Made by a program: the position numbers and the translations under genes
Sequence record: MT129654.1
Length of the DNA stretch: 64,000 nt
Direction: 5' to 3' (one strand)
Source: Escherichia phage MN04
Part shown: piece by piece, positions 7,324-60,337 of the stretch
How positions within the stretch are numbered: position 1 is the first letter of the stretch
How the letters are laid out: the number at the start of each line of letters is the position of its first letter
The notes under the pieces: model-generated
Told to the model about the DNA's origin: nothing
The model's database searches: none
Seen by the model: only the letters and a program-made list of their open reading frames with translations

Positions 7324-7397
7324 GGCCCTGTAGCTGGACGGTCAAGCGAGCGACTCATAATCGCTGGATGGTGGTTCGATTCCACCCAGGGCCACCA
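7324..7397 (+). tRNA. tRNA with anticodon CAU (Met, or Ile2 if lysidine-modified), CCA encoded
   Basis: Acceptor stem GGCCCTG/CAGGGCC, anticodon stem AGCGA/TCGCT with loop CTCATAA, T-arm GGTGG-TTCGATT-CCACC. Confidence 0.8.
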
Positions 7398-7401
7398 ATT
7401 T

Positions 7402-7476
7402 GGATGTGTAGCTCAGTGGTAGAGCAGTTGACTGTTAATCAATTGGTCCATGGTTCGAATCCATGCATGTCCGCCA
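7402..7476 (+). tRNA. tRNA-Asn (anticodon GTT), CCA encoded
   Basis: D-arm GCTCAGTGGTAGAGC, anticodon loop CTGTTAA, T-arm CATGG-TTCGAAT-CCATG, acceptor with two G-U pairs. Confidence 0.75.
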
Positions 7477-7480
7477 AATA

Positions 7481-7556
7481 CGAGGCATAGCTCAGAAGGA
7501 AGAGCAACGGTCTTCTAAACCGTAGGTCGTAGGTTCGATCCCTACTGTCTCGACCA
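7481..7556 (+). tRNA. tRNA-Arg (anticodon TCT), CCA encoded
   Basis: D-arm GCTCAGAAGGAAGAGC, anticodon stem ACGGT/ACCGT with loop CTTCTAA, T-arm GTAGG-TTCGATC-CCTAC; T4 also carries tRNA-Arg(UCU). Confidence 0.75.
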
Positions 7557-20195: not shown

Positions 20196-20240
20196 GTTTA
20201 CATCTCCTGTAGACGTGGTACTATAGACCTATCAACTACA
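20196..20240 (+). promoter_or_regulatory. T4-type early promoter cassette
   Basis: GTTTAC 20196-20201; inverted repeat tctcctgtag/ctacaggaga flanks the core ggtactatagacctatcaa. Confidence 0.6.
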
Positions 20241-20252
20241 GGAGATTACAAA

Positions 20253-20711
20253 ATGTCAGAAATTAATTCAGAAGTATTCATCCGCCGCAACAAATTACGT
20301 CGTCAGTTCGAAACCGAATTTCGTGAACTTAACGCGTCCATCAAAAAAGCCGCCATCAAGAGCGGTGTCCCAGCTTTCTTTATTAAGTACTCTAATCACT
20401 TGTTGGACCGTGCTATCCAACGTGAAATTGACGAAAAATATGTTTTCTCTTTGTTCAAGAAGCTCCATAATCATGTTAAAGAAATCCATGAATTTTTAAT
20501 CCAGGAGCCTCTTCCTGACATAGAATCTGAAATTGTCCCAGGTAAAGTGTATCGTCCACTGCGTCTCGAGATTACCGATAAAACCTTATGGTTGGGTATG
20601 ACCGTAGATCGTAAACATCCTGATAAAGGATATTCATTAAAATGTCGTATGGCATTTGTTAACTCTAAACGTTTAGAAGGTAAAACCAGCACGAAAGTAA
20701 TCTATCTTTAA
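20253..20711 (+). CDS. hypothetical protein (152 aa)
   Basis: ATG 20253 with SD ggag. Confidence 0.5.
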   Translation: MSEINSEVFIRRNKLRRQFETEFRELNASIKKAAIKSGVPAFFIKYSNHLLDRAIQREIDEKYVFSLFKKLHNHVKEIHEFLIQEPLPDIESEIVPGKVYRPLRLEITDKTLWLGMTVDRKHPDKGYSLKCRMAFVNSKRLEGKTSTKVIYL

Positions 20712-20723
20712 TAATGAGGTCTC

Positions 20724-21263
20724 ATGAAAAAAGTATTAGCCACTTTACTATTGACAGTTAGTATGTCTGCCTATAGCGTAGAGCCTACTTTCAGTAATGA
20801 ACAACTCGATAATTTACATTATGCGTATGCTTTCGGTGAACAATACCAAAAGTCGGGAAAGTTCAAAGAAAACCCTAATCAAAAAGGATTAGGATATATA
20901 ATGGCCGGATTATTATGGCAGGAATCATCTGCTGGAATTAATCAAGGTTTAAATAAAGATAAGCACCATGCTTATGGCATGTTCCAAAATTACTTGCCTA
21001 CGTTAAGAAGTCGTGTTCAACAGGTAGGTTGGAAGATGTCAGACAAAGAAATAATTCGTATGGTCCAAAAACGACAGAACAGTGCCTCTTGGGCCTACAT
21101 TGAGCTGTCTTATTGGATTAATGTTCACAAAGGTGACCTGAGAAAAGCGATTGCTTCTTATAATGCGGGCTGGAATGTCAAAGCAGGCAGTAAATATGCT
21201 TCCGAAGTTCTAGAAAAGGCCAATTACCTAAAATCTAAAAAGATGTTTGAGGCGGTATATTAA
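20724..21263 (+). CDS. secreted lytic-transglycosylase-like protein (SLT domain, 179 aa)
   Basis: Signal peptide MKKVLATLLLTVSMSAYS; motifs WQESSAG, GMFQ, SYNAGWN typical of SLT/goose-type lysozyme folds. Confidence 0.6.
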   Translation: MKKVLATLLLTVSMSAYSVEPTFSNEQLDNLHYAYAFGEQYQKSGKFKENPNQKGLGYIMAGLLWQESSAGINQGLNKDKHHAYGMFQNYLPTLRSRVQQVGWKMSDKEIIRMVQKRQNSASWAYIELSYWINVHKGDLRKAIASYNAGWNVKAGSKYASEVLEKANYLKSKKMFEAVY

Positions 21264-21620
21264 ATGATTAAACAGATGACTATAGCGCTTATGTTGATTG
21301 CTCCGGGAGTATTAGCATCACAGGTTGATGATACAAATAATTCAATTGTCGAGTATGCCACCCGTACAGCAAAAGATTATTGTCATCCAAGTAATACTGA
21401 ATGTGTTATTGAATTCAGTTCAAAAATAACAGCTGCTTTTAAAGATGGGCAGAACGACGTCGAGCATCGCCGAATGAAAGAGAAAACTCTTTCTAAAAGA
21501 TACGAGCAACGTCTAAACGTTACTGAATGTGTTCCGTCTGATAAAAAGTACAAAGAAATGTGCGCGTCTATGGTAGACAGACTCGTTGACTCTTACAACC
21601 GAGGGCTAAACTCTAAATGA
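21264..21620 (+). CDS. secreted Cys-containing protein (118 aa)
   Basis: Signal peptide MIKQMTIALMLIAPGVLAS; coupled to the SLT gene. Confidence 0.5.
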   Translation: MIKQMTIALMLIAPGVLASQVDDTNNSIVEYATRTAKDYCHPSNTECVIEFSSKITAAFKDGQNDVEHRRMKEKTLSKRYEQRLNVTECVPSDKKYKEMCASMVDRLVDSYNRGLNSK

Positions 21621-22096
21621 TTATTGATTATATTAAGGGCGATATCGTCGCCCTGTTTCTCCAAGGTAATATTATTGCACATGGGTGTAACTGCTTTCAC
21701 ACAATGGGTTCAGGTGTAGCGGGTCAATTAGCAAGAGCTTATCCTAAAATTTTAGAAATTGATAAGACTACTACCGAATACGGCTCTCGTGATAAATTAG
21801 GTGATATGTCTATTGTTTTTAAACATAAGCCTAATGGATTTGCAATGTGCTATAATTTATACACCCAATACGAACCAGGCCCTAATCTTGATTACGGTGC
21901 TTTAGTAAACTGTATGATAGAATTAAATCTACAAGCAAATGACCTTTTGTTTAAACCAAGAATTTATATTCCTCGTATAGGTTGTGGTATTGCTGGTGGC
22001 GATTGGGACAAGGTTTCTCAATTAATTGATATGTTTACCCCTGATATTGATTTAATAGTGGTGGATTATGAAAGCACATTACCCACATCCGTTTGA
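21617..22096 (+). CDS. macro-domain protein (ADP-ribose binding/processing fold, 159 aa)
   Basis: Motifs HGCNCFHTMGSGVAGQL and IPRIGCGIAGGDW resemble the macro-domain glycine-rich loops; ATGA coupling. Confidence 0.6.
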   Translation: MIIDYIKGDIVALFLQGNIIAHGCNCFHTMGSGVAGQLARAYPKILEIDKTTTEYGSRDKLGDMSIVFKHKPNGFAMCYNLYTQYEPGPNLDYGALVNCMIELNLQANDLLFKPRIYIPRIGCGIAGGDWDKVSQLIDMFTPDIDLIVVDYESTLPTSV

Positions 22097-22280
22097 CCCT
22101 AAAAACAAAGCGGAAATTATTCGGAGTTGGACCGAAACCCGAGTAACTAAATGCCCTATAAAAAGTCAGCATAACACCGATAAATGGTATATTGGTGAAT
22201 ACGTTGAATATACTTTTATAGATAAAAATAAACGTAAACAGCATGTAGAAGAATATTGCTTAAAGGTGCAATGGTTATGA
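22068..22280 (+). CDS. hypothetical protein (70 aa)
   Basis: ORF overlapping the macro gene end. Confidence 0.35.
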   Translation: MKAHYPHPFDPKNKAEIIRSWTETRVTKCPIKSQHNTDKWYIGEYVEYTFIDKNKRKQHVEEYCLKVQWL

Positions 22281-22483
22281 GCCAAGCCCGAATTCTTAAA
22301 ACGGCTAAATGTGAAAAATGTGAATGGCCGGTAATCGCAGCTTTATGCAACGATGAAATGGAATGTGAATTTGATTACTGGTGGTACTGTTCTAATAAAG
22401 GATGTTCTAATCATAAGGGTGAAGGTTTTCATTCTGGTTATTGCGAACATCCTAAATTTGTGCGATATGGTGAACCTAAATGA
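22271..22483 (+). CDS. Cys-rich small protein (about 70 aa)
   Basis: CEKCEW...CNDEMEC...CSNKGC...CEH pattern. Confidence 0.45.
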   Translation: MVMSQARILKTAKCEKCEWPVIAALCNDEMECEFDYWWYCSNKGCSNHKGEGFHSGYCEHPKFVRYGEPK

Positions 22484-22665
22484 GTTTAAGTATTAGTCAG
22501 AAAAGTAGATTGTTTGAGCTTATTCATGAGCTTTTGGATGAACATACCGAAGCAAACGCTTTTTACGATGAATATGGCCCGCTATCCCCCGAACAGCAAG
22601 AAGAATTTGCTGATCGGTTTGATGAGAAAGAAAACGAATTAATTGCTTATGTGAATACGCTTTAA
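22480..22665 (+). CDS. hypothetical acidic protein (61 aa)
   Basis: ATGA-coupled ORF. Confidence 0.4.
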   Translation: MSLSISQKSRLFELIHELLDEHTEANAFYDEYGPLSPEQQEEFADRFDEKENELIAYVNTL

Positions 22666-22674
22666 GAAGGTAAT

Positions 22675-23247
22675 ATGGCTCAACTTTATTTTCATTATGC
22701 GGCAATGAACTCAGGTAAGACCGCTTCATTGCTAACGGCCGCTCATAACTACAAAGAACGCGGTATGGGCGTGCTCCTTTTAAAGCCTGCGATAGACAAT
22801 AGAGAATCAAGCCATACCATTTCGTCTCGTATAGGGATTAGTCAAGAGGCCAATGCGGTGACTCCGGATATGGACCTATACGAGTTCTATCGTTGGGCTG
22901 AATCTCAAAAAGATATCCACTGTGTGTTTGTGGATGAAGCACAGTTCTTAGAACCTGCACAGATAAAACAACTGGCAAAGATAGTAGACAATTATAATGT
23001 TCCGGTTATGTGTTACGGGCTAAGAACTGATTTTCAGGGTAAACTGTTTCCTGGTTCTGCTGAATTACTCGCTACGGCAGATAAACTCGTTGAGTACAAA
23101 GGTGTGTGCCATTGCGGCCGTAAAGCTACTATGACTGCTAGGGTCCAAGATGGTGTCGCAATTAAGGACGGAGCCCAAGTTTCTATAGGTGGCAACGATT
23201 CTTACGTGTCATTGTGCAGGAAGCACTGGATAGAAATAACGAGTTGA
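22675..23247 (+). CDS. tk: thymidine kinase (190 aa)
   Basis: MAQLYFHYAAMNSGKTASLL...CHCGRKATMTAR...SLCRKHW matches remembered T4 tk (P-loop plus zinc-binding Cys motifs). Confidence 0.9.
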   Translation: MAQLYFHYAAMNSGKTASLLTAAHNYKERGMGVLLLKPAIDNRESSHTISSRIGISQEANAVTPDMDLYEFYRWAESQKDIHCVFVDEAQFLEPAQIKQLAKIVDNYNVPVMCYGLRTDFQGKLFPGSAELLATADKLVEYKGVCHCGRKATMTARVQDGVAIKDGAQVSIGGNDSYVSLCRKHWIEITS

Positions 23248-24290: not shown

Positions 24291-24294
24291 TCAA

Positions 24295-24321
24295 AGGTCT
24301 CACTTCGGTGGGACCTTTTTT
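24295..24321 (+). terminator. rho-independent terminator
   Basis: Hairpin ggtctcac-ttcg-gtgggacc followed by TTTTTT. Confidence 0.7.
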
Positions 24322-24330
24322 CGTTTTAGT

Positions 24331-24375
24331 GTTTACATCCTCTAGGAACGTGATACTATAGACCTATCAACTAAT
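24331..24375 (+). promoter_or_regulatory. T4-type early promoter cassette
   Basis: GTTTAC 24331-24336 and core gatactatagacctatcaa. Confidence 0.6.
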
Positions 24376-59607: not shown

Positions 59608-59901
59608 ATGAAAAAGTTATTAATCGCAGCAATCCTTACAGTAGCATCATGTGGCACGGCTCCGGTAACTGCCGGATTGGATAAAGACCTTTGTGAATGG
59701 TCTATGACTGCAGACCAAGAGTCAGTTGAACATCAGATTTATGCCGATATCATGAACATCACTAAACGTGACCGTCCTGACATGGTTAAAGAAGTGTCCG
59801 ACCAATTAGCTTCAACCGGTGTTATGCAGTACAACTATGTTTTGTATTGTGACGCTAATTTCGATAACAAAAACATTGTTAAAGAGGTTACAGGTGAGTA
59901 A
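59608..59901 (+). CDS. sp: Spackle, periplasmic superinfection-exclusion protein (97 aa)
   Basis: Signal peptide plus DKDLCEWSMTADQ...VMQYNYVLYCD matches remembered T4 Sp (61.3); length identical. Confidence 0.8.
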   Translation: MKKLLIAAILTVASCGTAPVTAGLDKDLCEWSMTADQESVEHQIYADIMNITKRDRPDMVKEVSDQLASTGVMQYNYVLYCDANFDNKNIVKEVTGE

Positions 59902-59902
59902 A

Positions 59903-60337
59903 ATGATTAACAGAACTTTGGTTATTAAAAAGCTTCGTTGTAAAAATCCAAACGCACAAGCATACAGGATGTTTTGGAGCGACGACCATCAGTACCTAGG
60001 TTATTTTATTGTTGATAGCGACGATAGAATTGTATTCGCTCATAAACTTCTTAACAGAGAATTAAACCATTGGCAAGAACTTATTGCTGTTAAGTCTAAA
60101 TTATTTTCGCTCAATGCAATGCACCAATTGGTTTATTTTTTCGCTGACGGGTTTCCGGACAAGGTTGAATTTGAAGGATTCGAATTTAAAGATATCCACC
60201 CGGGCAACGAATTGAACGACCGCGTTAATATGGATATCCCTAGCAAGTATATCAAAAACAGTCTGTTGAAAATTCTGGAAGCTCCGGTTTATTCAATTGA
60301 CGACCAGATTTTTAATGCCTTTATGAACCGAGGTTGA
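59903..60337 (+). CDS. hypothetical protein (144 aa)
   Basis: ATG 59903 after SD ggtgag. Confidence 0.45.
   Translation: MINRTLVIKKLRCKNPNAQAYRMFWSDDHQYLGYFIVDSDDRIVFAHKLLNRELNHWQELIAVKSKLFSLNAMHQLVYFFADGFPDKVEFEGFEFKDIHPGNELNDRVNMDIPSKYIKNSLLKILEAPVYSIDDQIFNAFMNRG

Follow-up and report, generated by a model that had tools for sequence, protein, structure and literature searches.

The tk.4 open reading frame of the stretch of DNA analysed here (64,000 nucleotides, referred to below as the window) probably encodes the Dhakavirus ortholog of phage T4 Tk.4 (AdfM), that is, a stand-alone macrodomain ADP-ribosyl-glycohydrolase that protects the phage from the host DarTG2 system in the manner of an orphan antitoxin. 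The gene is real and publicly annotated, and an anti-DarTG2 function has been assigned to its T4 ortholog, so the finding is already known. The first-pass annotation reached this function correctly from the sequence alone: the first of its suggestions, reversal of a DarT-like DNA ADP-ribosylation, is supported by the genetics of the T4 ortholog (bioRxiv 10.1101/2025.11.20.689424) and by synteny. The features discussed below are collected in Table 1.

Table 1. Features of the window that bear on tk.4 and its surroundings.
Feature	Position	Strand	Description
Three-tRNA cluster	7324..7556	+	Met-CAT, Asn-GTT, Arg-TCT
T4-early-type promoter-like site	20197..20224	+	Upstream of regB; TTTACA, 16 nt, TG, TACTAT; motif scan
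regB	20253-20711	+	Pfam REGB_T4
vs.1	20724-21263	+	PHROG 600; JS98 and T4 annotation
vs	21264-21620	+	PHROG valyl-tRNA synthetase modifier; JS98 and T4 annotation
vs stop/tk.4 start overlap	21617..21620	+	ATGA; junction -4
tk.4/adfM CDS	21617..22096	+	Single-macrodomain protein; ATG start, 159 aa plus stop
First ADP-ribose-binding glycine-rich loop	21680..21730	+	Residues 22-38, HGCNCFHTMGSGVAGQL; H22, G23, N25, C26, G33 and A35 invariant
Asn25 codon	21689..21691	+	aac; matches SCO6735 Asn27 and PhiKZ gp104 Asn23; Ser in TARG1
Gln84 codon	21866..21868	+	caa; matches TARG1 catalytic K84, DarG K80, SCO6735 Gln85 and the Gln of BT1257 (profile alignments)
Second glycine-rich (diphosphate-binding) loop	21968..22006	+	Residues 118-130, IPRIGCGIAGGDW; P119, G122, G124 and W130 invariant
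tk.4/tk.3 overlap	22068..22096	+	29 nt; tk.4 3' end with tk.3 (DUF7202) start
tk.3	22068-22280	+	Pfam DUF7202
Zinc-binding small protein	22271-22483	+	Pfam Phage_zn_bind; Cys-rich
tk.2-like	22480-22665	+	Pfam DUF7438
Thymidine kinase	22675-23247	+	Pfam TK
Terminator-like hairpin	24293..24318	+	Intrinsic type, first on this strand downstream of the gene block; 11-bp stem, 5 GC pairs, then T-run
Copy of the early-type site	24332-24359	+	Extended, near-identical; just past the hairpin

Identity and class of the tk.4 product

The window belongs to the genus Dhakavirus (Tevenvirinae). Approximately 2.6 kb around tk.4 are 99% identical to Escherichia phage JS98, and the open reading frame is JS98 tk.4 at 100% identity, a gene with the RefSeq product name "phosphatase; contains A1pp phosphatase motif". 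Collinearity with JS98 is incomplete, as no database record was found to span at least 80% of the initial 25 kb, and the tRNA genes are shifted by ∼ 750 bp from the JS98 map when extrapolated from the tk region. Together, these observations indicate that the window phage is a close relative of JS98 rather than JS98 itself, and that the window is mosaic with respect to the sequenced Dhakaviruses.

The T4 Tk.4 protein is 56% identical to the window protein over 155 aa in a gapless alignment (E 8e-69). Moreover, the order regB-vs.1-vs-tk.4-tk.3-small genes-tk is common to the JS98 and T4 annotations, and by sequence and gene order the window open reading frame is the positional (syntenic) ortholog of T4 tk.4. 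The two proteins share H22, G23, N25 and Q84, and their genes the flanking vs and tk.3. They differ in the second glycine-rich loop (IGCGIAGGDW in the window protein, IGAGIGKGNW in T4 Tk.4), and the window protein exceeds T4 Tk.4 by 4 aa in length and has a lower pI (4.86 versus 5.91).

The first-pass annotation had read a macro domain into the 159-aa product from two glycine-rich strings, both of which are present (residues 22-38 and 118-130), and the domain itself is borne out by profile, fold and family. The Pfam Macro profile (PF01661) matches with 34.2 bits, above its gathering score of 22 (E 2.7e-8, profile positions 2-117 of 118). An AlphaFold2 model, for which an alignment of 65 homologous sequences (65-66 across versions) at 39-92% identity was used as input, displayed the three-layer α/β/α macro fold with a pLDDT of 93.9 and a pTM of 0.88. 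The top set returned by Foldseek from the PDB comprised TARG1, BT1257, Thermus aquaticus DarG, Poa1p and Mycobacterium tuberculosis DarG (E 1e-9 to 9e-8), and PDB sequence and profile searches returned the same set, with BT1257 as the best match by both sequence and structure. These matches place the window protein in the ALC1-like (TARG1/DarG/SCO6735/Poa1p) class, and its nearest relatives by sequence and by structure are ALC1-like rather than MacroD, PARG or viral Mac1 proteins. A MacroD/YmdB/Af1521 type was rejected on structural Z values of at most 12.4 and a score of 15.9 bits for the NCBIfam O-acetyl-ADP-ribose deacetylase model, for which the cut-off is 291. On the question of macro subfamily raised in the first-pass annotation, the placement is thus the ALC1-like/TARG1/DarG class, in its glutamine form, and not MacroD or Af1521.

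The window protein also matches PHROG 335 (E 1.2e-70), and about 5% of the phage genomes on deposit encode a Tk.4 homolog. The PHROG 335 profile comprises 422 positions, of which the window protein covers 54-208 only, and longer phage homologs in BFVD carry an additional 85-100 residues (Acinetobacter phage 133 tk.4, 245 aa; Erwinia phage vB_Eam-MM7 Gp101, 260 aa; Escherichia phage SUSP2, 260 aa). The longer homologs and the long profile indicate that some members of the family bear an extra domain. In Vibrio phage Achelous (NC_055794.1) and Acinetobacter phage vB_AbaM_B09_Aci05 (MH746814.1) the homolog lies under or adjoins ribose-phosphate pyrophosphokinase or nicotinamide phosphoribosyltransferase annotations, and these neighbours suggest that part of the macrodomain family is linked to NAD salvage. 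A homolog from Pelagimonas (40% identity) is a chromosomal orphan, and no DarT gene lies closer than 6 kb at the one locus examined; this single locus argues weakly against an origin of the family as a toxin-antitoxin partner. In a separate context, a RIL-seq study reports the tk.4 mRNA of phage T2 as a pairing partner of ArcZ, a small RNA of the host; the gene is mislabelled there as a putative thymidine kinase, and the level of its protein was the same in an arcZ mutant (bioRxiv 10.64898/2026.06.19.733364).

Active site and relation to known ADP-ribose erasers

Residue equivalences were obtained by aligning the family profile to reference proteins with HMMER, as a MAFFT alignment that included the distant references placed the catalytic loop wrongly. 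A search with BT1257 yielded the SCO6735 sequence, in which the residues discussed in the published work (PMC9411070) fall at the expected numbers. In this alignment, window residues 22-38 correspond to H24-V25-C26-N27 of SCO6735 and, in TARG1 and DarG, to the GxG loop. Gln84 occupies the catalytic position, and none of the 65 homologs, the most distant at 39% identity, deviates at Gln84 or Asn25. Ala126 sits where TARG1 has Asp125, and is conserved in at least 90% of the family.

Streptomyces coelicolor SCO6735 neutralises DarT and removes, by hydrolysis, ADP-ribose linked to thymidine in DNA; on this substrate its Q85A variant is inactive and its N27S variant almost inactive, and a lysine-independent, water-mediated mechanism was proposed (PMC9411070). 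The same authors state that the Gln sets SCO6735 and ALC1 homologs apart from TARG1 and DarG homologs (PMC9411070). Since Gln84 and Asn25 match SCO6735 Q85 and N27, the window protein is, on its aligned residues, of the glutamine (SCO6735/BT1257) type within the ALC1-like class, and not of the lysine (DarG/TARG1) type.

SCO6735 (PDB 5E3B) and BT1257 (2AFC/2FG1) share with the window protein a stand-alone ALC1-like macrodomain, a Gln in the catalytic position, an Asn two residues past the conserved His/x pair, and a PRIGCGxAGGxW loop. However, they are bacterial chromosomal rather than phage proteins, with only about 26-31% identity to the window protein. Furthermore, SCO6735 Val25 is replaced by Gly23 and the DNA-contacting Lys34 by Ser32, and the mobile loop past Gln84 is 5-6 residues shorter than in SCO6735 and devoid of lysine, so that SCO6735 Lys89 has no counterpart. 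The Gln/Asn centre of the SCO6735 type is therefore present in the window protein, whereas Val/Ile25, the extended basic loop (Lys89) and Lys34 are all missing, and Gly23, Ser32 and the absent Lys89 counterpart count against SCO6735-like action.

Human TARG1/OARD1 (4J5R) is the top Foldseek match (E 1e-9) and has a loop of equal length past the catalytic position. TARG1 also cleaves thymidine-linked ADP-ribose on DNA (PMC9411070), but its Lys84/Asp125 dyad is replaced by Gln84/Ala126 in the window protein. Similarly, the DarG proteins of DarTG2 (M. tuberculosis 5M3I, T. aquaticus 5M31, T. africanus 7OMU) have Lys80, preceded by a conserved Thr, where the window protein has Gln84. The C-terminal DarT-binding domain of DarG (about 330-350 aa in total) is absent from the 159-aa window protein, which matches the PADLOC DarG profile at positions 2-144 of 329 only and scores 27.8 bits against the NCBIfam antitoxin_DarG model (cut-off 250). 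No darT gene adjoins tk.4, the neighbours of which are vs and tk.3. Taken together, the missing catalytic Lys, C-terminal domain and darT neighbour rule out membership of DarG.

The probable transcription unit and its neighbours

The genes from regB through tk are tightly packed, with junctions of -29 to +12 nt, and the order from tk.3 to the thymidine kinase gene is the same in T4. The ATGA overlap of vs and tk.4 suggests that translation of the two may be coupled. A promoter-like site upstream of regB recurs as a near-identical copy beyond the gene block; the two lie in stretches of ∼ 45 nt (20196..20240 and 24331..24375, + strand) with the pattern GTTTACATC..CT..A.ACGTG.TACTATAGACCTATCAACTA, which resemble T4 early promoters. 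No + strand terminator-like hairpin was found between the upstream site and 24293. The upstream site is likely to be the start of the transcription unit containing tk.4, and early, co-transcribed expression of the gene is plausible. Since the generic promoter scan was not enriched (14 sites, compared with 15.5 expected by chance from shuffled sequence), this model rests on the likeness to T4 early promoters, and the early expression of tk.4 is something that we infer. A single MotA-box-like match within tk.4 (21898) was taken as chance.

The first-pass annotation had placed tk.4 in an operon with a secreted transglycosylase-like protein and small Cys-rich proteins, and this holds in part. One downstream gene does encode a Cys-rich zinc-binding small protein, and the vs.1 product starts like a signal peptide and contains ES, GMFQ and AYNAG-like motifs reminiscent of lytic transglycosylases. 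However, vs.1 is two genes upstream of tk.4 rather than adjoining it, its SLT match is below threshold (E 0.015, 15.3 bits versus 21.3) and no PDB sequence match was found for it, so that its designation as a transglycosylase was not retained. The Vs protein also starts with a signal-peptide-like hydrophobic stretch, both in the window (MIKQMTIALMLIAPGVLASQ) and in T4 (MTKILVLCIGLISFSASASA; L002:5387-5734, - strand), and no Pfam family matches it. For Vs, which is annotated as a modifier of the cytoplasmic valyl-tRNA synthetase and would be expected to act in the cytoplasm, a signal peptide would be odd.

Probable anti-DarTG2 action of Tk.4 and its alternatives

The genetic evidence comes from the T4 protein only. 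In the HIDEN-SEQ preprint of 20 November 2025, a T4 transposon library was screened on a DarTG2-expressing host (30 °C, minimal medium); tk.4 was the single hit and was depleted specifically with DarTG2, its clean deletion sensitised T4 to DarTG2, and the gene was named adfM, for anti-DarT factor Macrodomain (bioRxiv 10.1101/2025.11.20.689424). This role fits the earlier finding that loss of adfA and adfN leaves T4 resistant to DarTG2 (PMC11825919). Enzymatic removal of ADP-ribose from DNA by T4 AdfM was proposed in the preprint as "likely" (bioRxiv 10.1101/2025.11.20.689424), and no biochemical work on a Tk.4-type protein emerged from a literature search on tk.4, AdfM and phage T4 macrodomains with DarT.

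The name AdfM has also been given to PhiKZ gp104 (Cell Reports 2026), which strips, in vitro, a TNTC oligonucleotide of the ADP-ribose that DarT2 has added, rescues cells from DarT2 and has reduced activity as an N23A mutant (PMC13309987). Like Tk.4, for which T4 genetics provide the evidence, gp104 is a phage-encoded single macrodomain that counters DarTG2, and its N23 matches N25 of the window protein. However, gp104 is imported into the phage nucleus (PMC13309987) and is a lysine-type, true DarG relative (FPTKDNW motif; E 9e-25 to M. tuberculosis DarG). Its similarity to the window protein is only marginal (BLASTP E 9e-4 over 33 aa; 36.8 bits to the Tk.4 family profile), and the two were not considered equivalent. 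The two AdfM proteins therefore represent separate macrodomain lineages converging on DarTG2, and on these comparisons gp104 looks like an independent acquisition under the same name.

T4 AdfN (gp30.3) follows the same strategy as Tk.4, being an orphan antitoxin-like eraser of DarT-made DNA ADP-ribosylation, but has an unrelated NADAR fold, acts on the guanosine adducts of DarT1 rather than those of DarT2, and is encoded elsewhere in the genome (PMC11825919). At 59819..60337 (+ strand, probable ATG near 59903), between sp and 61.1, the window encodes a 144-aa protein where T4 has 61.2 (AdfA, anti-DarT1). The last 14 residues of this protein (SIDDQIFNAFMNRG) are 100% identical to T4 gp61.2 and the remainder is unrelated by BLAST, which looks like a recombination junction at which most of AdfA may have been replaced.

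A mechanism can be outlined from these data. Tk.4 would be made before replication, from the tight regB-vs.1-vs-tk.4-...-tk unit behind its early-type promoter. As established for DarTG2, DarT2 consumes NAD+ upon infection in modifying thymidines of single-stranded phage DNA with ADP-ribose, which blocks replication. The two glycine-rich loops of Tk.4 would then bind the ADP-ribose, with Gln84, held by Asn25, positioning the distal ribose, and hydrolysis of the thymine-ribose bond would restore the DNA. This chemistry should follow the lysine-independent, water-mediated route of SCO6735 rather than the lysine route of DarG and TARG1. Tk.4 might in addition bind and inhibit DarT2 directly, as reported for the inactive SCO6735 Q85A variant.

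The main substrates of Tk.4 could instead be ADP-ribosylated proteins or RNA, with the enzyme erasing the marks of host ADP-ribosyltransferases or tuning the phage's own Alt/ModA/ModB modifications. T-even phages encode ADP-ribosyltransferases, and modA.3 and modA.4 lie at the far end of the window. However, the modifications made by Alt, ModA and ModB are on arginine, and ALC1-like macrodomains are not known to cleave such a linkage, which counts against a role in tuning the phage's own modifications. Both SCO6735 and TARG1 do hydrolyse protein-linked ADP-ribose as well (PMC9411070), and window Tk.4 is acidic and devoid of the basic DNA-clamp loop of SCO6735; yet PhiKZ gp104, which works on DNA, is just as acidic, so the argument from acidity against DNA binding was dropped. 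As the depletion of tk.4 in the T4 screen was specific to DarTG2, proteins or RNA are unlikely as the main substrates, although their de-ADP-ribosylation is possible, by analogy, as a secondary activity.

It is also rather improbable that Tk.4 is an ADP-ribose-1''-phosphate phosphatase or another small-molecule hydrolase, such as an O-acetyl-ADP-ribose deacetylase, working on NAD-derived metabolites rather than on DNA. The RefSeq label points in this direction, but it is a transferred annotation and not the outcome of a test. There is also similarity to yeast Poa1p, an ADP-ribose-1''-phosphate phosphatase, to which the N-terminal HxCNC motif of the window protein is nearest; this motif counts against a DNA role, and the NAD-salvage neighbours of some phage homologs hint at a metabolite-directed one. 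Appr-1''-p is, however, a product of 2'-phosphotransferase-dependent tRNA splicing, and we know of no such pathway in T-even infection, which leaves a phosphatase there without a pathway rationale. A deacetylase is disfavoured by the NCBIfam score given above and by the clearly greater distance of the MacroD/YmdB-type structures, and neither activity explains the DarTG2-specific phenotype of the T4 ortholog.

A purely non-catalytic Tk.4, which would bind and block DarT2 as an antitoxin mimic or sequester an ADP-ribose-derived signal, is highly improbable: the precedents of the dead SCO6735 Q85A variant, which still inhibits DarT in vitro (PMC9411070), and of the phage anti-DarT factors AdfA and AdfB, which work by toxin binding (PMC11825919), together with the loss of the catalytic lysine of DarG, are set against a Gln, an Asn and two ADP-ribose-binding loops that are invariant to 39% identity, including in the orphan bacterial homolog without a DarT neighbour, and against the lack of a DarT-binding C-terminal domain. 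Degradation of a signal or editing of the phage's own marks, which the first-pass annotation had also entertained, is conceivable but found no support for window Tk.4.

With removal of ADP-ribose from DNA as the preferred reading, Tk.4-type AdfM might even represent a third mechanistic subtype of DNA ADP-ribose erasers, in which the Gln/Asn centre of SCO6735 is set on the short-loop TARG1/DarG scaffold without a basic DNA clamp, and which arose from orphan bacterial macrodomains independently of PhiKZ AdfM; this proposal is speculative and on balance doubtful. If true, a broader range would be possible, taking in thymidine-ADP-ribose on DNA as well as Glu/Asp-linked ADP-ribose on protein or RNA, and Tk.4 could be a general eraser against several ADP-ribosyltransferase defences.

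Overall, the public label "phosphatase" for tk.4 is probably misleading, and the name AdfM is borne by two unrelated macrodomain lineages, the Tk.4 type (Gln), for which lysine-independent chemistry is predicted, and the PhiKZ gp104 type (Lys). In T-even-type phages, DarTG1 is countered by the NADAR enzyme AdfN and DarTG2 would be countered by an orphan macrodomain that resembles an antitoxin, and the wide spread of the Tk.4 family bears on the choice of phages for DarTG2-carrying hosts.
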